From Proteobacteria bacterium CG1_02_64_396 (GTDB taxonomy: Bacteria; Pseudomonadota; MNWR01; CG1-02-64-396): a DNA stretch of 64,000 nt. Under the pieces are notes generated by a model. It ran no database searches. It was not told the origin of the DNA and saw only the letters and a list, made by a program, of their open reading frames with translations. The translations under genes and the position numbers were made by a program. Where the stretch lies: NCBI GenBank assembly GCA_001872725.1, contig MNWR01000007.1, positions 5,673-69,672 on the forward strand, read 5' to 3'. Positions 47,939-64,000 of the stretch are shown one piece after another. Numbering within the stretch: the first letter of the stretch is position 1; each line of letters opens with the position of its first letter.

Positions 47939-48014
47939 GGGGCCGTAGCTCAGTTGGTAGAGCGTCTCGTTCGCAATGAGAAGGTCAGGGGTTCGATTCC
48001 CCTCGGCTCCACCA
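47939..48014 (+). tRNA. tRNA-Ala (anticodon CGC)
   Basis: A cloverleaf with the G3:U70 Ala identity pair. The anticodon loop is TTCGCAA, the T-loop GGTTCGATTCC, and the 3' CCA is encoded. Confidence 0.9.
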
Positions 48015-52992: not shown

Positions 52993-53020
52993 TTGACCTG
53001 TGGCAGCGGCTCTTTAGAAT
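52993..53020 (+). promoter_or_regulatory. Sigma70-like promoter upstream of rpmH
   Basis: TTGACC (52993–52998), a 16-nt spacer, then TAGAAT (53015–53020). Confidence 0.45.
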
Positions 53021-53088
53021 GCCGCCCCTTTTGCCGTCCCCCTGCGTTGGGCCCTTTGGCCTGATCGTTGTCGTTTGGAGCATTCAAG

Positions 53089-53235
53089 ATGAAGCGCACC
53101 TACCAGCCCAGCCGTATCAAGCGTGCCCGCACCCACGGTTTCCGTGCCCGCATGGCGACCAAGAATGGCCGCAAGGTTCTCAACAATCGTCGCGCCAAGG
53201 GTCGGCATAGCTTGTCCGTTTCTAGCGACAACTAA
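53089..53235 (+). CDS. rpmH: 50S ribosomal protein L34, absent from the ORF track (48 aa)
   Basis: [44 protein letters not shown]… is the canonical L34 sequence. Confidence 0.9.
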
Positions 53236-53239
53236 GATT

Positions 53240-53710
53240 GTGAGGGCTGGGGCTCCGCAAGGCGCGCCAGGCGCCGCGGAGGCCCCTGTGTCGGTGAACG
53301 GCCCACAATCGGCCATCCCCCTGCCGAACAACCCCCGCGATCTTCCCTTTTCCGGGCAGCAATTCCCTCCGGAATGCCGGATTTTGCGTCGCGGCGAGTT
53401 CCAGGCCATCGCCCGCTTGGGGCGGCGGGAGCACACCCGTAACTTCGTGATCGTCCATCGCCCCTCGGTCGCCTCTTGGGCCCGCTTGGGGGTGACGGTT
53501 TCGAAGAAGGTCGCCAAGCAGGCGGTGCGGCGCAATCGCATCAAGCGGTTGATCCGCGAGGCCTTTCGCACCCTCCCCGAGGATCTGCGCCGTCGCCCCT
53601 TCGATTTGGTGGTGATCGCCCGCGCCTCCAGCGTTGATGTTGCGGGGGGCGCGCTCCTGAGCGAGATGCAAGCGGCGCTAACCCGTCTTCTGACCGGGAG
53701 AACGCGGTGA
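53240..53710 (+). CDS. rnpA: RNase P protein component
   Basis: An RnpA basic motif (…VSKKVAKQAVRRNRIKRLIREAFR…). The start is uncertain: GTG 53240 gives 157 aa, and a later GTG near 53290 is also possible. The ORF-track start at 53123 overlaps rpmH and is rejected. Confidence 0.75.
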   Translation: MRAGAPQGAPGAAEAPVSVNGPQSAIPLPNNPRDLPFSGQQFPPECRILRRGEFQAIARLGRREHTRNFVIVHRPSVASWARLGVTVSKKVAKQAVRRNRIKRLIREAFRTLPEDLRRRPFDLVVIARASSVDVAGGALLSEMQAALTRLLTGRTR

Positions 53711-54024
53711 TTCACTGGTGGCGTACCCTCAGTCGTGTTCCATCTGGGATTCTGATTGGAATCGTCCGGGTGTATCGCTACGCCATCAGCCCCTTTTTCC
53801 CCCCCTCCTGTCGTTACTACCCTAGCTGTTCGGAGTACGCCGTCGGCGCGCTGCGTCATCATGGGGCGATCCGGGGGGGTATCCTTACGGTTTGGCGGAT
53901 CCTGCGTTGTAACCCCTGGTCGTCTGGGGGCGAGGATCCGGTGCCGCGACGGCATGAGCACACTACGTGCGATCATTCCCCATCCAACCTGAATACCGGG
54001 GATTCATCCCCCCGGCTCTCCTAA
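53707..54024 (+). CDS. yidD: Membrane protein insertion efficiency factor YidD
   Basis: A YidD signature (…YRYAISPFFPPSCRYYPSCSEYA…GGILTVWRILRCNPW…). Confidence 0.8.
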   Translation: MIHWWRTLSRVPSGILIGIVRVYRYAISPFFPPSCRYYPSCSEYAVGALRHHGAIRGGILTVWRILRCNPWSSGGEDPVPRRHEHTTCDHSPSNLNTGDSSPRLS

Positions 54025-54042
54025 CCATCCAGGAATCGATTC

Positions 54043-55722
54043 ATGGAAAAGCGGTTGCTCGCGGCTTTTGCCCTTTCCCTGCTGGTGATGGTCGGTTTCC
54101 AGTTCATGTTCACCCCCACGCCCCCCTTGCCGGGGAGCGAGGATCAAACCGCCCAGGTGGAGCAGCAAACCCAGGAGGGGGGTGGTGCAGCGGTCAGTGA
54201 CGCCGCTGTGACTGCCCTGCCAGGCGACGATACCGAGGGGGCGACCCCCCAGGTTGGACGGGGCGTCGGCAGCGAAGCGGGGGCGCAGGGCAGCACCACC
54301 AGCGCCGCCCAGCCCGAAATCGACCTGAGCGGCGCCGTGGTGCTGCACAACCAGCTTCTGCAACTAACCGTGTTGCCGGTGGGTGGTCGCATTGTCGATG
54401 CCGCCTTCCTGAAGTACCCCGTCGCCCCCGGTTCCGAGGAGCGGGTCCACCTGCTGCAGGCCGATGCCGAAAAGCGGGCCTTGATCCGCGAATGGTTCGA
54501 CGGTGACCAAACCCAAGCGCTGCCCCTGCCCACCACCCCCTTTGCGGTAACCGCCCAGAGCGATCAATCGCTCACCCTGACCTGGAGCAACCAGGAGGGG
54601 GTGACCTTCACCCGCACCATCACCATCGACAGCGACAAACCCTACCTCGTGCATTCGAACTGGACGGTCTCGAATGCGGCGGCGGTGGAGGGGGTTCGTT
54701 ATCACTGCGACCTAGTCGCCGTCCCCTTCGTCAAAGAATCGAACATGGTCAACTTCTACGACCATGCCGGACCCCAGGGGTACATCGGCGGGCAATGGAT
54801 GCAGGTTGAATACGACGAGGTGGGGGAGAAGCTCTTCCAGCTCCCCGGCACCCAAGGGTGGATCGGTCAGACCATCCCTTACTTCCTGGCCGCCGTCATG
54901 GCCCCCACCGACCGGGAGAGCATCGGCTACCTCGGTCAAGAGGGGCGGATGGTGGTGACAGGTCTTGCCTACCCCACCGGAGGGGCGAGCTGGAGCCAGG
55001 ATCTGTTCATCGGCCCGAAAGAGGTCGATTTGATGGAGGAGGTGGGTCGCGACCTGCCGCGGGCCATCGATTTTGGCTGGATCACCTTTCTGGGCCGTCC
55101 CCTGCTCGACCTGTTGGTCTTCTTCGAGGGTTATCTGGGCAACTGGGGTCTGGCGATCATCATGCTGACCCTAGCGATCAAGATCGTTCTCTTCCCACTG
55201 GCCAACGCCTCTTACAAGTCGCTCAACGGGATGCGCAAGCTGACCCCGAAGCTGCAAGAGCTCAAAGAGAAGTACAAGGACGACCGGCAGAAGCAGTCGC
55301 AAGAGATGATGGCGCTGTACCAGAAGCACAAGATCAATCCGATGGGGGGCTGCCTGCCCATCCTGATTCAGATTCCGATCTTCTTCGCGCTGTATCGGGT
55401 GTTCGCCAGCGCGGTCGAATTGCGCATGGCCCCCTTCTACGGCTGGATCACCGATATGACCGCCCAGGATCCCTACTACATCCTGCCGGTATTGTTCGGC
55501 ATCTCGATGTTCATTCAGCAGAAGCTCAACCCGGCCCCCGCCGACAAGATGCAGGAGCGGATCCTGTTGCTGCTGCCGGTGATCTTCACCTTCTTCTTCA
55601 TGACCTTCCCCTCGGGGTTGGTGCTCTACTGGTTGGTCAACAACGTGTTGTCGATTGCCCAGCAGGCCTACATCTACAAGAAGTTTTCCGACCCGCTGCC
55701 CGAAAAGGTCAGAAAAAAGTAA
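54043..55722 (+). CDS. yidC: Membrane protein insertase YidC
   Basis: 559 aa with an N-terminal TM helix and a periplasmic domain. The C-terminal 5-TM core has conserved blocks (…MLTLAIKIVLFPL… LQELKEKYKDDRQKQSQEMMALYQKHKINPMGGCLPILIQIPIFFALY…). Confidence 0.92.
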   Translation: MEKRLLAAFALSLLVMVGFQFMFTPTPPLPGSEDQTAQVEQQTQEGGGAAVSDAAVTALPGDDTEGATPQVGRGVGSEAGAQGSTTSAAQPEIDLSGAVVLHNQLLQLTVLPVGGRIVDAAFLKYPVAPGSEERVHLLQADAEKRALIREWFDGDQTQALPLPTTPFAVTAQSDQSLTLTWSNQEGVTFTRTITIDSDKPYLVHSNWTVSNAAAVEGVRYHCDLVAVPFVKESNMVNFYDHAGPQGYIGGQWMQVEYDEVGEKLFQLPGTQGWIGQTIPYFLAAVMAPTDRESIGYLGQEGRMVVTGLAYPTGGASWSQDLFIGPKEVDLMEEVGRDLPRAIDFGWITFLGRPLLDLLVFFEGYLGNWGLAIIMLTLAIKIVLFPLANASYKSLNGMRKLTPKLQELKEKYKDDRQKQSQEMMALYQKHKINPMGGCLPILIQIPIFFALYRVFASAVELRMAPFYGWITDMTAQDPYYILPVLFGISMFIQQKLNPAPADKMQERILLLLPVIFTFFFMTFPSGLVLYWLVNNVLSIAQQAYIYKKFSDPLPEKVRKK

Positions 55723-55819
55723 AGCCGGGTTTGTAAGAATTCAGGATGCACTCCGAAGGGGGGAGAGATTGTTTCTCTCCCCCTTTTTGTTGGGCCTACT
55801 CCGGCCCTGGAGGCGTGTC

Positions 55820-56272
55820 ATGGTGCGTATTTGGAAGATGGCGCTGTTGGGACTAGGTGTTCTGGGGTTCGGTGCGGGCTGGGCCTTGGCCGCCGAGCCG
55901 CCCCCCGTGGCGCCGCAGGTGTTGGCGGTGAAGATGTATGCCGATTGGTGCCCCGGTTGTCAGGCGATGGCCGGGGCCTGGAAACAAACCCAGGAGCGGT
56001 TGGCCGACCAGCCGGTGTTGTTCGTCAAACTCGACAAAACCACCCCGGACCTGGCCAAACAATCGGCGATGTTGGCCGAGCGGCTCGGTTTGGCGCTGCT
56101 TTACAGCGATCATCCCGGCACCGGCTTCGTGCTGCTGGTCGATCCCCAAAGCCACGCCCTGCTCGATACCCTCAATCCGATGATGAACGCCGACCAGATG
56201 GTGCGCCGGATTCAGGCCCATACCGGGTTGAGTGAAACAGGCGCGATGGGGGCGAAACACAGCGCCATGTAA
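55820..56272 (+). CDS. Periplasmic thioredoxin-like (CxxC) protein
   Basis: A signal peptide and a WCPGC active-site motif. ATG 55820 follows GGAGG. ~150 aa. Confidence 0.6.
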   Translation: MVRIWKMALLGLGVLGFGAGWALAAEPPPVAPQVLAVKMYADWCPGCQAMAGAWKQTQERLADQPVLFVKLDKTTPDLAKQSAMLAERLGLALLYSDHPGTGFVLLVDPQSHALLDTLNPMMNADQMVRRIQAHTGLSETGAMGAKHSAM

Positions 56273-57632
56273 TCCCCACAAGGGGGCGATTCTGAGCTCT
56301 TCAGCATTCACCGATACCATCGCCGCCGTCGCTACCCCTCCCGGTTTGGGCGGGGTGGCGATCGTGCGCGTCTCTGGCCCCGAGGTTGCCAGGGTTTTTC
56401 CGCTATTGCCCAAGCTCCCCGATCCTCCTCCCCCCCGCACCGCCTGTTTCACCCCCCTGGTCGATGACGCAGGGGAGGTGCTCGACGAGATCCTCGCCCT
56501 GTATTTTCCGGCGCCCCGCTCTTACACCGGCGAGGATGTGCTGGAGCTGCACCTGCACGGCAATCCCCACCTCTGCGCCGAGGTGCTCAGTTTGCTCGCC
56601 ACCCTCGACATTCGCCCCGCTCAACCGGGCGAATTCACCCGCCGCGCCTTTTTGAATGGCCGTCTCGATCTGACCCAGGCCGAGGCGGTAGAGAAAATCA
56701 TCCACGCCCCGACCCGCGAAGGGCGGCGGGCGGCGGTGCGGCTACTCGATGGGGGATTGGGGGAGGCGATTGGGCCGGTGCGGGAGGCCTTGATCGATCT
56801 GCTGGCTCAGGTCGAGGCCCACATCGATTTCGAGGTCGAGGAGAGCGGCGAGTCGGTCGCCCCCCAGCTTGAGGAGGGGCTCAAAACCCTGCTCCACGCC
56901 CTCGACCCTTGGGTCGCCAGCCGCCGCACCGCCGAGCGGCTCTTCGGCGGGGTGCGGGTGGTGCTGGCCGGGCGGCCCAACGTCGGCAAATCGAGCCTTT
57001 TCAACCGCTTGCTGGGTGAAGAGCGGGCCATCGTCACTGCCATCGCCGGAACGACCCGCGATCTGATCGACCGCGACGTGCATTTGGGCCCCTATCCGGT
57101 ACGGTTGATCGACACCGCCGGATTGCGGCAGACCGAGGATGTGATCGAGGCCGAAGGGGTGGGGCGCAGTCGTCGCAGCGCCGCGCAGGCCGATCTGCTG
57201 CTCTGGGTCAGCGACGACCCCGACGAAGCGCCCCCCGAGGATCTAACCCGCCCCTGCGACGTGCGCATCGACAACAAACGCGACGCCTGGGGGGGAACAT
57301 CGGGTTGGCAGGGGGAGCACCGCTTCGTTTGCGCCGCCAAGAGCGATCCCGACGAGGTGTTCGAGGCGCTGCGGGCCGGTTTGGGCCATCTGCTGGGGGA
57401 TGTGGGGGGCGAGGAGTCTCTCACCGCCACCGCCCGGCAAGGGCAGGCGCTGGCCGAAGCTCGGCAGCACCTGCTGGCGGCCCAAACCCTGCTGCGGGAC
57501 GATCCCGACGATTTGGAGTTGATCGCCGAGGAGCTACACGGCGCCGCCCACCGTCTGGCCGAGCTGCTCGGGGAGATCCACGGCGAGGATGTGCTCGACC
57601 GGGTGTTTTCGAGTTTTTGTATCGGGAAGTAG
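56232..57632 (+). CDS. mnmE: tRNA modification GTPase MnmE (TrmE)
   Basis: An N-terminal domain (…TDTIAAVATPPGLGGVAIVRVSG…), the G-domain (GRPNVGKSSLFNRL… DTAG) and the C-terminal FCIGK. The start is uncertain; ATG 56232 overlaps the upstream gene by 41 nt. Confidence 0.9.
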   Translation: MKQARWGRNTAPCNPHKGAILSSSAFTDTIAAVATPPGLGGVAIVRVSGPEVARVFPLLPKLPDPPPPRTACFTPLVDDAGEVLDEILALYFPAPRSYTGEDVLELHLHGNPHLCAEVLSLLATLDIRPAQPGEFTRRAFLNGRLDLTQAEAVEKIIHAPTREGRRAAVRLLDGGLGEAIGPVREALIDLLAQVEAHIDFEVEESGESVAPQLEEGLKTLLHALDPWVASRRTAERLFGGVRVVLAGRPNVGKSSLFNRLLGEERAIVTAIAGTTRDLIDRDVHLGPYPVRLIDTAGLRQTEDVIEAEGVGRSRRSAAQADLLLWVSDDPDEAPPEDLTRPCDVRIDNKRDAWGGTSGWQGEHRFVCAAKSDPDEVFEALRAGLGHLLGDVGGEESLTATARQGQALAEARQHLLAAQTLLRDDPDDLELIAEELHGAAHRLAELLGEIHGEDVLDRVFSSFCIGK

Positions 57633-57649: not shown

Positions 57650-58681
57650 ATGGTGCGCTGGCGGGCAAGGGTGATGGTGCTGGTTGTGCTGGCCGGATGC
57701 GGCTCTTCAGCCTCCACCGGTCCGTCGTCGGGGGGTGACGGCACCGGAGCTTGGTCCCCCGCCGCCAGCGTGGTGGCCGAGATGGTCGGCTACACCAACA
57801 CTCTGGCGGCGACGATGCCGGGCATTGGCAGCCAGGGGTATCTTCCCCCCGATGCTGCCGCCTTAACGCACTGGGAAACTGCGGTGCAGGCCTTGGCCCA
57901 GGGGGATGGGGCGGCGGCGCAAACCGCGCTGGGCAATTTGCCCGGCTACCGCCTGGCCGAACTGAGCGATACCGGCGATGGCAACCGCCGCTACTGGGTG
58001 CTGGAGGAGTCCCCCGCCGTGCAACAGGGTTGGGGTACCCTGATGGTGAACCCCACCCCCCAGCGCGAGTTGCTCGTCGAGGTGCCCCACCCGGTGTTCG
58101 ATACCAACACCGCCGCCGAGGGGGCGCGGATCTTCCGGCAAACCGGCGCCCGCTACCTGCTGATTGCCGGAACCCACCGCTGCGCCAACACCGCCACCTC
58201 GACCTGCGCCGGGACCACCGGGGTTTGCGATGGCGGGGCGCCCTCCCCCTTTCGCACCTCGGACATGGGGCACAACGGCGATACCCCCTTCCAATCGGTC
58301 CATCGTCTGTTGATGACGGCCCACCCCAACCTGGTGGCGATCAGCCTGCACGGCAACGGCCAGGCCGAGTGTGGCGATCTGTTTTTAAGCAGCGGCTCCA
58401 CCACCACGGTCGACCCCCTTGTCGCCACGTTGCAGCAGAACTTCCCGGCCGGCTCCTCCCTGACGGTGTTGACCGTGGCCGACCCTGGGGTGACCTGCAC
58501 CCTGTTCGGCTCGACCAACGTTCAGGGGCGTCAGATCAACGGCAGTCCCTCCCCGTGCAGTCAATCGGCCAGCGCCACCTCGGGGCGTTTCATCCACATC
58601 GAACAAAGCCTGCGGGTGCGCTCTCAGGGGTATGATGCCGAGCTGATTCAAGCGCTGATCGCCACCTTCCCGGTATTGTGA
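57650..58681 (+). CDS. Hypothetical lipoprotein (unknown function)
   Basis: A lipobox (VLAG|C). It contains His/Cys-rich motifs (HPVFD… IAGTHRC… SLHGNGQAEC…). 343 aa. The ORF-track start at 57305 overlaps mnmE and is rejected. Confidence 0.5.
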   Translation: MVRWRARVMVLVVLAGCGSSASTGPSSGGDGTGAWSPAASVVAEMVGYTNTLAATMPGIGSQGYLPPDAAALTHWETAVQALAQGDGAAAQTALGNLPGYRLAELSDTGDGNRRYWVLEESPAVQQGWGTLMVNPTPQRELLVEVPHPVFDTNTAAEGARIFRQTGARYLLIAGTHRCANTATSTCAGTTGVCDGGAPSPFRTSDMGHNGDTPFQSVHRLLMTAHPNLVAISLHGNGQAECGDLFLSSGSTTTVDPLVATLQQNFPAGSSLTVLTVADPGVTCTLFGSTNVQGRQINGSPSPCSQSASATSGRFIHIEQSLRVRSQGYDAELIQALIATFPVL

Positions 58682-60275: not shown

Positions 60276-63134
60276 ATGCCGCTGCATCCCCCCCGCATCA
60301 CCCCCTACCAAAGCCAGTTTTACGCCTGGCTCCTGACCCGCCGGGCGCCGGGGGGCAGCGTGGAGGCGCTGGCCGCCACCCTGGTTGATGCGCAGGTCGA
60401 CCTCAACCCCCATCAGGTCGAGGCGGCGCTGTTCGCCTGCAAAAATCCCCTTTCCCGTGGGGTGATCCTGGCCGACGAGGTGGGGCTGGGCAAAACCATC
60501 GAAGCGGGGTTGGTGATCTCGCAACGTTGGGCCGAACGGCGGCGGCGCATCCTCATCGTGGTTCCCGCCAACCTGCGCAAACAGTGGCATCAAGAACTGC
60601 AAGACAAGTTCGCCCTGCAAGGGGTGTTGCTGGAGGCCAAAAGTTACAACGCCTTGGTCAAACAGGGGGTGGCCAACCCCTTCGTCCAGGGTGATGGCCC
60701 CGTCATCTGCTCCTACCAGTTTGCCAAAACCAAGGCCGATAACCTGCGCCAGGTGCATTGGGATCTGGTGGTCTTCGACGAGGCCCACCGCCTGCGCAAT
60801 GTTTACAAGCCGGGCAACGTCATCGCCCGCACCCTGTGCGACGCCTTGGCGCACGTTCATGCCAAGGTGCTCCTCACCGCCACCCCTCTGCAAAACTCGC
60901 TGCTGGAGCTGTTCGGCCTGGTCAGCATCATCGACCCCCAGGTTTTTGGCGACGAGGCCAGTTTTCGGGCCCAGTTCACCGGGTCGCAGCAGGCGCTCCC
61001 GGATTTGCGCCGTCGCCTGACCCCCCTTTGCCTGCGCACCCTGCGCCGCGACGTGCAGCAGTACGTGTCGTACACCGCCCGTCGGGCCATCGTGCAGGCG
61101 TTCACCCCAACCGACGAAGAGCAGGCTCTGTCGGAGCAAATCACCGACTACCTGCGCCGCCCCAACCTCAAGGCGCTCCCCGCCGGGCAGCGCCACCTGA
61201 TTTCCATGGTGCTCTGGAAGCTGCTGGCCTCCTCCAGTTATGCCATCGCCGGAGCGCTGGAGACCATGGCCAAACGGTTGGAGGGGGAGCTGGAACAGGG
61301 GTTGGTCGAGGCGCTCGACGCCGATTACGAAGAGTTGAGTGAAACCGCCGACGAGTGGGACGAAGAGGAGCCCCCACCCCCCCCAGCGCCCGACGAACGC
61401 GATGCCATCGCCGCAGAGATCGCCGAACTGCGCCGCTTCAGTCAGCGGGCCGCCACCATCCGCGACAACACCAAGGGGCAGGCGCTGCTGACGGCGCTGG
61501 ACCGGGCTTTTGCCGAGTTGGAGCGGCTGGGGGCGCCGCGTAAGGCGATTGTTTTTACCGAGTCGCGCCGCACCCAGGACTACCTGCTGCGGTTGCTGGA
61601 GACCACCCCCTACGGGCAGGGGATCGTCCTGTTCAACGGCAGCAACAGCGACCCCCGCGCCCAGGCGATTTACCAGGATTGGTTGGGGCGCCACGCTGGC
61701 ACCGACCGCATCACCGGCTCCAAAACCGCCGACACCCGCGCCGCCCTGGTGGAACACTTCCGCGACCGGGGCACGGTGATGATTGCCACCGAGGCGGGGG
61801 CCGAGGGGATCAACCTGCAATTCTGCTCCCTGGTCATCAACTACGACCTGCCCTGGAACCCCCAGCGCATCGAACAACGCATCGGGCGTTGCCACCGCTA
61901 CGGGCAAAAATTCGACGTGGTGGTGGTCAACTTTGTCGACCAAAGCAACGAGGCCGACCAACGGGTCTACGAGTTGCTCGATCAGAAGTTTCAGCTTTTC
62001 GAAGGGGTGTTCGGCGCCAGCGACGAGGTGCTTGGCACCATCGAATCGGGGGTCGATTTCGAGCGGCGCATCGCCGGGATCTACCAGGATTGCCGCACGA
62101 ACGAGGCGATCCGGATCGCTTTCGACCAACTGCGGCGCGATTGCTCCGCCGAGATCGACAAAGCGATGGTTAAAACCCGCAAGGCGCTTCTGGAGCATTT
62201 CGACGAGCAGGTGCAGGAGCGGCTGCGCATCAGCGCCGACGAAAGCCGTAATACCCGCAGCCGTTTTGAGGCGATGTTGCTTGATTTGACCCACGCCGAG
62301 TTGGCAGGCGACGCCGACTTCGACGAGGTCGGTTTTACCCTGCGCCGCCTGCCCGCCGCCGCCCCCGCCGTCATCCCCCTGGGCCGCTACGAACTGCCCC
62401 GGCGCAGCGGCGAGGCCCACCTGTACCGGGTGGGTCACCCCCTGGCCGAATGGGTGCTGGGGCGCGCCAAAGGGCGCCCCCTTCCCCAGGCGCGGCTCAC
62501 CTTCGACTACCAGGCCCATGGGGTCACCGTCAGCACCTTGAAGGGGCTGCGCGGGCAGCGTGGTTGGCTGCGGGTCACCCTGTTGAGCGTGGAGGCGCTG
62601 GGGCAGCGGGAGGAACACCTGATCGTCGCCGCCTGCACCCAGCGCGGTCAGGTGTTGGACGAAGACGACCCCGCCAAGCTGCTGCGTCTGCCGGTCCACG
62701 GCGACCCCGTCCCCTTGGTTCGGGCCGATCCGGCCCCCCCCGAACTGGCGCAAGACGAAGAACAACGCAGGCAACAGGTGCTGCGCCAGGTTAACGAACG
62801 CAACCTGGGGTACTTCGACCAGGAGGTGGCCAAACTCGACGCCTGGGCCGACGACCTCAAACAGGGGTTGGAGCAGCAGATCAAACAGCTCGACCGGGAG
62901 ATCAAAGAGGCCCGTCGCCTTGCCGCCATCGCCCCCACGCTGGAGGAAAAACTGGCCCAGCGAAAGCAGCAGCGCGATCTAGAGGGGCAACGCAACCGGT
63001 TGCGCCGGGAGCAATACGACCGGGAAGACGAGATCGGCATCCAACGCAACGCCCTGATCGACGGCCTGGAGGCGCAATTGCGGCAAAAGGTTGATCAAAC
63101 AGAACTTTTTGCGATTGAATGGGCGCTGGTGTAA
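60276..63134 (+). CDS. SNF2-family (Swi2/Snf2) helicase/ATPase with a ~390-aa C-terminal extension ending in a long coiled coil
   Basis: Motif I (LADEVGLGKTIEAG) at aa ~66–78 and motif II DEAH (VVFDEAHRLRN) at aa ~165. Motif VI (QRIGRCHRYGQ) is at aa ~540. An acidic/Pro-rich insertion (…DEWDEEEPPPPPAPDERD…) lies between the RecA lobes. A heptad-repeat Q/R/E-rich tail follows (…QIKQLDREIKEARRLAAIA…). AGGAG RBS. Confidence 0.85.
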   Translation: MPLHPPRITPYQSQFYAWLLTRRAPGGSVEALAATLVDAQVDLNPHQVEAALFACKNPLSRGVILADEVGLGKTIEAGLVISQRWAERRRRILIVVPANLRKQWHQELQDKFALQGVLLEAKSYNALVKQGVANPFVQGDGPVICSYQFAKTKADNLRQVHWDLVVFDEAHRLRNVYKPGNVIARTLCDALAHVHAKVLLTATPLQNSLLELFGLVSIIDPQVFGDEASFRAQFTGSQQALPDLRRRLTPLCLRTLRRDVQQYVSYTARRAIVQAFTPTDEEQALSEQITDYLRRPNLKALPAGQRHLISMVLWKLLASSSYAIAGALETMAKRLEGELEQGLVEALDADYEELSETADEWDEEEPPPPPAPDERDAIAAEIAELRRFSQRAATIRDNTKGQALLTALDRAFAELERLGAPRKAIVFTESRRTQDYLLRLLETTPYGQGIVLFNGSNSDPRAQAIYQDWLGRHAGTDRITGSKTADTRAALVEHFRDRGTVMIATEAGAEGINLQFCSLVINYDLPWNPQRIEQRIGRCHRYGQKFDVVVVNFVDQSNEADQRVYELLDQKFQLFEGVFGASDEVLGTIESGVDFERRIAGIYQDCRTNEAIRIAFDQLRRDCSAEIDKAMVKTRKALLEHFDEQVQERLRISADESRNTRSRFEAMLLDLTHAELAGDADFDEVGFTLRRLPAAAPAVIPLGRYELPRRSGEAHLYRVGHPLAEWVLGRAKGRPLPQARLTFDYQAHGVTVSTLKGLRGQRGWLRVTLLSVEALGQREEHLIVAACTQRGQVLDEDDPAKLLRLPVHGDPVPLVRADPAPPELAQDEEQRRQQVLRQVNERNLGYFDQEVAKLDAWADDLKQGLEQQIKQLDREIKEARRLAAIAPTLEEKLAQRKQQRDLEGQRNRLRREQYDREDEIGIQRNALIDGLEAQLRQKVDQTELFAIEWALV

Positions 63135-63174
63135 CGGCGCCCTTTGCCCGAACGCACGACGACTGGAGCCCGCG

Positions 63175-64000
63175 ATGTCGGCTACGAATTTCAAGACCGA
63201 AAACAACACCTACCGCAAGCTGATCGGCAACGGCTTGACCTACAGCATCCCCCGGTTTCAGCGCGATTACAGTTGGACCGATGAAGAGTGGGAAGACCTT
63301 TGGTCCGACATCCTAGGCACCATTCAAGAGGGGGGCGAACCGGCTCACTACATGGGCTACCTGGTATTGCAATCCCAAGATGAAAAAAGCTTCGACGTCA
63401 TCGACGGTCAGCAACGCTTGACCACCCTGAGCCTGATCGTGTTGGCGGTGCTCAAAAGCCTGCAACGGCTGGTGGATGATGGGATCGATTCCGACCGCAA
63501 CCGGCAAAGGCTGGAGCAAATCCGCAGCACCTACATCGGTTACCTCGACCCGGTCACCTTGGTCACCCGCAGCAAAATCACCCTAAACCGCAACAACGAC
63601 GCCTACTACCAAACCTACTTGGTGCCGCTGGGCCATTTGCCGGTCCGGGGTTTTCGCGCCTCGGAACATGCCTTGCGCAAAGCCTTTGATTGGTTTGATC
63701 GGCGGATCCAGGGGTACGCCAAAAAGCAGGGGGGCGACGAGGGTGTGGCACTGGCCAGCCTGATCGAAACCATGAGCGACCGGCTCTTCTTCACGGTCAT
63801 CAGCGTCACCGACGAGCTCAACGCCTACAAGGTGTTCGAAACCCTCAACGCCCGTGGGGTGCGCCTCTCCTCGACCGATTTTCTCAAGAACTACCTGTTT
63901 TCGGTGTTGCACAAGCAGGGAGAGCATTTGCACGAGATGGACACCCTTGAAAACCGGTGGGAGTCGATGGTGTCGCGGTTGGGTGCCGAGAGTTTTCCCG
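63175..64000 (+). CDS. DUF262-domain protein (GmrSD/SspE/BrxU-type N-terminal ParB-like NTPase domain), 3'-truncated by the window end
   Basis: This open-ended frame was translated manually. It has DUF262 hallmark motifs (…YSIPRFQRDYSW…), DGQQRLTTL and FETLNARGVRLSSTDFLKNYLF. It sits 40 nt after the SNF2 gene, with GGAG 6 nt upstream of ATG 63175. Confidence 0.8.
   Translation, partial: MSATNFKTENNTYRKLIGNGLTYSIPRFQRDYSWTDEEWEDLWSDILGTIQEGGEPAHYMGYLVLQSQDEKSFDVIDGQQRLTTLSLIVLAVLKSLQRLVDDGIDSDRNRQRLEQIRSTYIGYLDPVTLVTRSKITLNRNNDAYYQTYLVPLGHLPVRGFRASEHALRKAFDWFDRRIQGYAKKQGGDEGVALASLIETMSDRLFFTVISVTDELNAYKVFETLNARGVRLSSTDFLKNYLFSVLHKQGEHLHEMDTLENRWESMVSRLGAESFP

Follow-up and report, generated by a model that had tools for sequence, protein, structure and literature searches.

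A DrmD-like SNF2 helicase gene and an interrupted HEC-06 nuclease gene of Proteobacteria bacterium CG1_02_64_396 as the probable left end of a defence locus with a Type III restriction-modification context in relatives

Enzymes of the GmrSD type combine a DUF262 nucleoside triphosphatase (NTPase) with a DUF1524 His-Me nuclease, whereas the SNF2 proteins are ATP-driven translocases of double-stranded DNA. In the Type III restriction-modification (R-M) enzymes, Mod methylates and Res cleaves after ATP-triggered sliding; to our knowledge, the classical Type III systems consist of two genes and have no SNF2 partner. HEC-06 (Hma-embedded candidate 06) is a GmrSD-like family first noticed inside Hma systems (10.1101/2024.01.29.577857), and the Hma systems consist of the SNF2 helicase HmaA, the 5-methylcytosine (m5C) methylase HmaB, and the ATPase HmaC (PMC8565338). 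One HEC-06 homologue alone gave phage resistance, i.e., acted as a single-gene defence, and this resistance was abolished by the substitutions Q79A and R80A in the DGQQR motif and by E471A and H472A in the nuclease motif (10.1101/2024.01.29.577857). Hosts of the Hma, BREX, DISARM, and Type I R-M types were considered in the embedding analysis of the same preprint; Type III hosts were not analysed (10.1101/2024.01.29.577857). In the present work, we describe a locus at positions 60,276 to 64,000 of a 64,000-nucleotide stretch of contig MNWR01000007.1 of Proteobacteria bacterium CG1_02_64_396 (the whole stretch is hereafter called the window). The locus contains an SNF2-family helicase gene and the first part of a DUF262 gene, which an earlier note on this DNA had proposed as a candidate uncharacterised defence or restriction module.

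According to our analysis, the region forms, with a probability of about 75%, the left boundary part of an anti-phage defence locus, in which an intact DrmD-like SNF2 gene is followed by a HEC-06 cassette broken by an insertion sequence (IS), and which corresponds to an operon with the order SNF2, cassette, Mod, Res in related genomes. The features to which the text refers are the following (L001 is the longest of the source contigs).

60276..63134, plus strand: intact gene of a DrmD-like SNF2-family ATPase, 952 aa (open reading frame (ORF), Pfam, PADLOC, NCBIfam, orthologues)
60483..60497, plus strand: helicase motif I (Walker A) GLGKT, aa 70–74 (Walker A lysine K73), invariant in the orthologue alignments
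60777..60788, plus strand: helicase motif II DEAH, aa 168–171, invariant in the orthologue alignments
61875..61907, plus strand: helicase motif VI QRIGRCHRYGQ, aa 534–544, invariant in the orthologue alignments
62232..63131, plus strand: family-specific C-terminal extension of the SNF2 protein, aa 653–952, conserved across phyla, with a small alpha/beta region and then a long helical hairpin
63135..63174: intergenic spacer between the SNF2 and HEC-06 genes, 40 nt, no terminator-like site
63175..64000, plus strand: first 275 codons (ATG at 63175) of a HEC-06-family (GmrSD-like, DUF262 and DUF1524) Type IV restriction nuclease gene, which leaves the window
63403..63417, plus strand: DGQQR motif of the DUF262 domain, aa 77–81, the motif mutated in the tested HEC-06 homologue
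L001:14361-14494 (window-equivalent ~64633 onward, ~630 nt past the window end), transposase on the minus strand: putative IS end with the transposase C-terminus NTERPHSALGGKTPEQVHQTHGGTTHRH-stop, within which 6/6 assemblies break

The context of the SNF2 family was assessed in 80 SNF2 loci fetched from reference genomes, which were searched with reference proteins from three annotated loci; Mod and Res were counted in the 44 loci with at least 9 kb of downstream DNA, and the genes of the slot between SNF2 and Mod in the 64 loci with at least 2.5 kb. A Type III Mod gene was found in 41 of the 44 loci and Mod together with Res in 39, on the same strand throughout. The Mod of the relatives is a PF01555 (N6_N4 methylase) protein and Res is a ResIII protein, and PADLOC identified both in the related loci with high significance (MTase_III, E 1.4e-156; REase_III, E 5.7e-201). 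The gene order in the relatives is SNF2, a variable cassette, Type III Mod, an optional cassette, and Type III Res, all genes being co-oriented. Mod follows SNF2 immediately only in L083 and in a Cupriavidus taiwanensis plasmid (NZ_CP016951.1, 370897–373743 and downstream), which carry bare three-gene versions; elsewhere, SNF2 and Mod are separated by 0.6–7 kb of other genes. A methyltransferase as a further partner, which the earlier note had suggested, is thus a regular component in the relatives, although it was not seen for the source genome itself.

The slot between SNF2 and Mod contains diverse genes. AIPR was found there in 27 loci, an SMC-like ATPase together with AIPR is another content, and HEC-06 was found in L007, L022, L028, L049, L061, and L098, as well as in the window. 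Other slots contain AbiEi/AbiEii, an m5C methylase with an NgoFVII-type endonuclease, ABC ATPases of the AAA_15/AAA_21 type, SIR2, a PLD nuclease, YhcG/DUF1016, or a KwaB-like protein. RhuM often lies between Mod and Res, many loci begin with an HTH_17 gene, and one locus adjoins conjugation genes. Where enough downstream DNA is present, a Type III Mod follows the combination of SNF2 and HEC-06 (L007, L028, L049, and L061). A by-product of the analysis broader than the window itself is a widespread SNF2 family that is almost always tied to Type III Mod/Res, with a variable defence cassette between SNF2 and Mod. This arrangement is a close parallel to the gene embedding that has been described in Hma, BREX, DISARM, and Type I R-M systems.

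Two of the related loci show additional arrangements. In Thiohalocapsa sp. PB-PSB1 (L043:389-17541), AIPR, Mod, and Res genes lie directly upstream of a second SNF2 gene, which is followed by another Mod gene, so that two systems stand in tandem. In L012 (22221-22880), a gene encoding a HATPase_c_3 protein (MORC-type GHKL ATPase) is located directly after Res; this neighbourhood recalls the associations of MORC with R-M systems noted in a 2008 study (Iyer and colleagues, PMC2292703).

As for the second gene of the window locus, the co-oriented DUF262 gene reported 40 nt downstream of the helicase gene was found as described, and its 275-aa ORF contains PF03235 (GmrSD_N/DUF262) at aa 16–242 (E 4.3e-37) together with the DGQQR, FETLNARG, and DFLKNYLF motifs. 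PADLOC assigns it to HEC-06 (PDLC04154, E 1.4e-123), with ORF aa 1–275 aligned to profile positions 1–274 of 569. The top PADLOC match, marginally above HEC-06, is a model labelled 'Orf5' (PDLC02687, E 4.6e-124), and the published system behind this label was not traced. The matches with other families are weaker: PADLOC SspE gave E 1.4e-17, PADLOC mREase_IV E 2.8e-17, and SspE in the PDB E 2.7e-4. Judged by its sequence, the DUF262 gene is a member of HEC-06, and it is not uncharacterised, because HEC-06 is a named family with reported anti-phage activity. The residues that correspond to the published mutants are present in this copy, namely, DGQQR at aa 77–81 and the nuclease motif at aa 475–476; the latter belongs to an EHVLP motif (aa 475–479) read on the source contigs, which matches the EHxxP pattern of DUF1524 and the EHICP (with E471/H472) of the tested protein. 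The intact relatives uniformly have 571 aa and both the DUF262 and DUF1524 domains, in accordance with the length of about 570 aa expected for the family, and HEC-06 genes are typically embedded and co-oriented within a larger methylase-containing defence operon. The window copy differs from them in being cut after residue 486 by the putative IS, and its host operon, as in the relatives, would be SNF2 plus Type III R-M, which is outside the host types of the preprint. The DUF262 NTPase and DUF1524 His-Me nuclease in one polypeptide are also shared with GmrSD, BrxU, and SspE, whose sequence similarity to the window HEC-06 is distant; between HEC-06 and BrxU, 23.7% identity at 11% coverage has been reported (10.1101/2024.01.29.577857).

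The window ends inside the HEC-06 gene, and reading beyond its last base was possible on other contigs of the same organism. The sequence of the window proved to be identical to contig PFQI01000090.1 of the NCBI assembly GCA_002793495.1 over all of the shared bases (13,725/13,725). An exact-protein look-up placed the helicase on 22 contigs, and the six that were examined, from ENA, NCBI, and Joint Genome Institute (JGI) assemblies, all end inside the HEC-06 gene, 494–531 codons from its start. The extension past base 64,000 that the earlier note had called for was thus possible up to the ends of these contigs. The expected DUF1524 domain does lie past the window end: on L001, PF07510 (DUF1524/GmrSD_C) follows DUF262, though only the first 63 of the 138 profile positions are reached before the match breaks off. 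In an alignment with nine intact relatives, the homology with HEC-06 ends after EHVLPQKPQEGW at W486 (window-equivalent nt ~64632), and the copy is without the conserved YRIGNMxLL..GxN...WTP...IWRxxQLS tail, which is the remainder of the His-Me nuclease domain.

Past W486, the six contigs share an identical sequence for 50–134 nt. Its minus strand encodes a 28-aa peptide whose matches lie at the very end of three models, namely, rve_3 (E 2e-4, 54–67 of 67), IS3 (352–369 of 369), and IS481 (267–282 of 284). Because this opposite-strand peptide matches transposase C-termini, we conclude that a putative insertion sequence sits in the nuclease domain of HEC-06, the complete element being predicted from its one visible end. 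From the break of 6/6 assemblies at this place, we infer that the IS is multi-copy in the genome, and every short-read assembly would stop here because the IS is repeated; the insertion would also account for six public assemblies stopping at one place. The truncated protein is most likely inactive, since the IS removes the YRIGNMxLL...GxN segment from the nuclease, and the gene is probably a pseudogene, i.e., a family member by descent that has been disrupted. A word search of the protein database with the X-padded 28-aa C-terminus did not find the transposase, a DNA similarity search in plasmids gave no match with the IS, and the 64-kb window contains no further copy of it. The far junction was sought in JGI metagenomes with a pattern composed of the assumed inverted-repeat end, a gap of 20–50 nt, and degenerate codons for YR[IL]GNM, and only three chance matches were obtained; this failure is weak evidence because the pattern presumes a 10-nt identity between the two ends of the IS, which is unverified.

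HEC-06 has no fixed link to the helicase. Of the close relatives (76–84% identity), those in Deefgea and in a JGI genome of 3.3 Mb have housekeeping genes as their only neighbours, one in a Gallionellaceae metagenome-assembled genome (MAG) adjoins an MmeI-like enzyme, and HEC-06 occurs without any SNF2 gene in L008, L010, and L097. In addition, comparison of the window with Methylophilus (L007) showed 53% identity for SNF2 and 83% for HEC-06, and comparison with Acidithiobacillus (L022) showed 70% and 66%, respectively; at the sequence level, the similarity of HEC-06 to the window copy is decoupled from that of SNF2. The GC content of the HEC-06 gene is 0.57–0.59 (window 63175–64000 and L001:12900-14360) versus 0.65 for the SNF2 gene and 0.64 for the upstream 10 kb. 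Across Methylophilus, Deefgea, Methylovulum, and Gallionellaceae, HEC-06 has a fixed length of 571 aa and 75–85% identity. The fixed length and this level of identity suggest a recent and wide horizontal spread of HEC-06. A distant GmrSD-like ORF with 24% identity to HEC-06 was also noted in a Gallionella MAG (L018:10567-12240), where it is located after Res and not in the SNF2–Mod slot.

As for the first gene, the 952-aa SNF2 ATPase with motifs I, II (DEAH), and VI and a long C-terminal extension, recognised earlier from the sequence, was confirmed by the ORF, the Pfam domains, and the motif positions. The Pfam domains are SNF2-rel_dom (PF00176) at aa 11–266 (E 2e-33) and Helicase_C (PF00271) at aa 435–543 (E 5e-21). 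Among the named families, DrmD is the best match for the ATPase core: the PADLOC model (PDLC02619) matches aa 35–656 with E 7.8e-194, and the core matched by the DrmD models extends over aa 35–662. The scores with both NCBIfam models of DrmD are under the cutoffs, namely, 651 bits versus 950 for NF038318 (profile positions 22–650 of 868) and 268 bits versus 610 for NF038317, and the C-terminal third of the window protein is different. Full-length orthologues of ~957 aa and ~70% identity were found in many Proteobacteria, and orthologues with 56–60% identity in Verrucomicrobia, Acidobacteria, Planctomycetes, Chloroflexi, and Nitrospira; over their whole range of 56–72% identity, the full-length orthologues keep the C-terminal extension. 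Homologues with 45–51% identity occur on plasmids. The distribution of the family across phyla is patchy, and its members are found on plasmids and on DNA resembling integrative and conjugative elements (ICE-like DNA), inside R-M operons. Since both genes of the window fall in named families (HEC-06 and DrmD by PADLOC), the claim of an unnamed system does not hold for them, and, the nuclease being probably dead, the window itself carries little weight.

Like DrmD in class 1 DISARM, the SNF2 gene of the orthologous loci is the first gene of its operon and is followed by a gene for an adenine methyltransferase and then by one for a superfamily 2 (SF2) helicase-type protein. However, the relatives carry Type III Mod (PF01555) and Res instead of DrmMI (PF13659) with DrmA, DrmB (DUF1998), and DrmC (PLD), and none of L007, L011, L012, and L096, all orthologous loci with Type III Mod/Res, contains the DrmA/DrmB/DrmC triplet; because DUF1998 and PLD genes are lacking beside Mod/Res, the SNF2 loci are not DISARM loci. 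For the window locus, class 1 DISARM was rejected on the missed DrmD cutoffs and on this context in the relatives. The Hma and ARMADA systems likewise combine an SNF2 helicase with a methylase and a further ATPase or helicase, often host embedded defence genes, and occur on mobile elements. Hma was rejected, as the PADLOC HmaA match (E 1.7e-55) is much weaker than that of DrmD and the relatives have an N6_N4 methylase and ResIII as partners, with neither the m5C methylase HmaB nor HmaC. ARMADA was rejected in view of the absence of the PglX-like methylase (ArmB) and of the YprA-family DUF1998 helicase (ArmC) from the orthologous loci. With classical Type III R-M of the EcoP15I type (Mod2Res), the relatives share adjacent and co-oriented MTase_III and REase_III genes; they differ in the conserved SNF2 gene before mod and in the cassette slot between the two, and in the genome of the window Mod/Res were not seen.

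Several other explanations of the locus were weighed against the reading of an intact SNF2 gene with an IS-broken cassette. The best PADLOC and NCBIfam matches of the helicase are DrmD models and DISARM is a known host of embedded genes, which would speak for a DISARM locus with the helicase as DrmD; nevertheless, with bit scores this far below the cutoffs, a PF01555/MTase_III methylase in place of the PF13659 DrmMI, REase_III as the helicase-nuclease, and no DUF1998/PLD core gene in the orthologous loci, such an assignment is highly unlikely. Still less can be said for a housekeeping RapA/HepA RNA-polymerase recycling factor with the DUF262 gene as an unrelated neighbour, the probability of which is practically negligible. 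Among the solved structures, RapA is nearest in sequence, and some depositors label the plasmid homologues rapA; on the other hand, the PDB match is confined to aa 40–232, NF003426 (RapA) scores 176.7 bits versus a cutoff of 576, and the N-terminal domain of RapA is absent, because this profile aligns only from position 145. With Walker A at aa 70–74, these data agree with the earlier judgement that the protein, having its Walker A near aa 70, is not RapA, and RapA/HepA was rejected. A conserved core orthologue, the finding that the earlier note had named as fatal to its proposal, was not what the family turned out to be: it is accessory, patchy, found on plasmids and ICE-like DNA, and embedded in R-M operons.

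The idea that SNF2 and DUF262 form a dedicated unnamed two-gene system, in which the nuclease depends on the helicase for delivery or activation, draws on the 40-nt spacing, the common orientation, the lack of a terminator between the genes, and the repeated adjacency of SNF2 and HEC-06 in L007, L022, L049, and L061. The two genes are probably co-transcribed, since the spacer is so short and has no terminator-like site. However, a tested HEC-06 protein gave phage defence alone (10.1101/2024.01.29.577857), HEC-06 occurs without SNF2, the similarities of the two proteins are decoupled, and HEC-06 is present in few of the 64 SNF2 loci, whose slots contain AIPR in 27 cases and unrelated cassettes in others. 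A Type III Mod moreover follows SNF2 and HEC-06 in the four such loci with enough downstream sequence. The tight pair proposed earlier as a module is thus very improbable, and the tempting step from two neighbouring genes to a new system goes too far here; what does stand of the proposal is that this is defence DNA, in view of the HEC-06 match and the defence operon context in the relatives. It is less improbable, though still unlikely, that the SNF2 gene is an orphan remnant and that the IS activity also deleted or relocated the downstream Mod and Res. The IS lies exactly where the operon should continue, Mod and Res are absent from the window, and the junction with the missing C-terminus of HEC-06 was not found in JGI metagenomes by the inverted-repeat-based pattern; this failure, as explained above, carries little weight, and the SNF2 gene is of full length and keeps all invariant residues, for which reason a long-standing decay of SNF2 is disfavoured. 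Finally, the contig ends might reflect strain-level heterogeneity in a hypervariable defence island and not a repeated IS. Defence islands are variable, and the slot after SNF2 differs between genomes; but six contigs are identical for 50–134 nt past the end of the HEC-06 homology, and this shared stretch encodes a transposase-type C-terminus with a stop on the opposite strand, which leaves such an origin of the contig ends with only a slight probability.

A number of observations count against the preferred reading of a defence locus whose operon continues with Mod and Res. No Type III Mod or Res gene is present in the 64-kb window, and since no sequence from beyond the IS was obtained for the source organism, Mod/Res were not seen there; the HTH_17 gene that precedes SNF2 in many relatives is absent at the window locus. 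Among the 44 related loci, three (L045, L053, and L087) showed no Mod in the 10 kb searched. For the transposase, the assignment is based on 14–18 residues with weak E-values, though these are positionally consistent, and the IS is seen as ~134 nt of one end. In the literature search, neither a paper on the trio of SNF2 with Type III Mod/Res nor an experiment linking the SNF2 family to Type III restriction was found. An AlphaFold2 model of the whole SNF2 protein, based on an alignment of 22 sequences with ~70% identity, was too poor to inform (mean predicted local distance difference test score (pLDDT) 55.7, predicted template modelling score (pTM) 0.33).

If the order of the relatives is applied to the source organism, its operon would once have read SNF2, HEC-06, Mod, Res. 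HEC-06 would have been a self-sufficient, horizontally mobile second layer of defence, independent of SNF2, and the IS would have inserted into the His-Me nuclease domain, behind residue 486 of ~571, and killed the enzyme. Type III Mod and Res would then be located beyond the IS, and the SNF2 protein may serve the Type III enzyme as an accessory translocase driven by ATP. It is possible, and is proposed here only tentatively, that the ~950-aa SNF2 family, which has a conserved C-terminal extension of its own, constitutes together with Type III Mod and Res a distinct, as yet unnamed three-component defence system, in which the position between SNF2 and mod serves as a dedicated landing site for interchangeable cassettes (AIPR, ABC ATPases, SIR2, AbiE, Kiwa-like, Type II R-M, and HEC-06). 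Somewhat more doubtful is the suggestion that SNF2 might help the Mod–Res complex engage or travel along foreign DNA. If the trio is a functional unit, the question arises of what a translocase of the chromatin-remodeller type adds to a Type III restriction enzyme. Under the same proviso, the SNF2–mod slot would be another place in which to mine new defence genes by guilt-by-embedding and would add a Type III version to the embedding platforms known from Hma, BREX, DISARM, and Type I R-M systems; the window would show one of these platforms at its left edge, the cassette being knocked out by an IS.

As for the C-terminal extension (aa 653–952) of the SNF2 protein, profile searches found no match in Pfam and no credible match in the PDB. 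At E ≤ 1e-3, the extension profile has matches in 1653 representative proteins, and at the stricter E ≤ 1e-10 in 946 representative clusters; in the full-length matches the extension is always C-terminal in proteins of ~940–995 aa. Its invariant residues include Y-R-x-x-H-P-L and W-A-D-D. In the AlphaFold2 model, which is poor overall, helices were predicted at aa 822–885 and 889–936 (pLDDT 72–87), forming a hairpin that spans aa 822–936. As a guess, the extension could be a docking or dimerisation element.

Scans for promoters, terminators, repeats, tRNA, and Rfam families around the locus were uninformative, and no marks of an island boundary (integrase, tRNA, att-like repeats) were found at it. 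The sole tRNA is located at 47939–48014. The genes 5' of the SNF2 gene encode a GATase and a ZIP transporter, as the earlier note had read them. Between mnmE and the GATase gene, there is a gene encoding a 343-aa protein (window ~57650–58681, plus strand) that has no match in Pfam and is present in all contigs of the organism. Further upstream, an rpmH-rnpA-yidD-yidC-(thioredoxin)-mnmE cluster occupies window positions ~53000–57632, ~2.6 kb upstream of the defence locus; the rpmH-rnpA-yidD-yidC-mnmE cluster is typically located near the replication origin.

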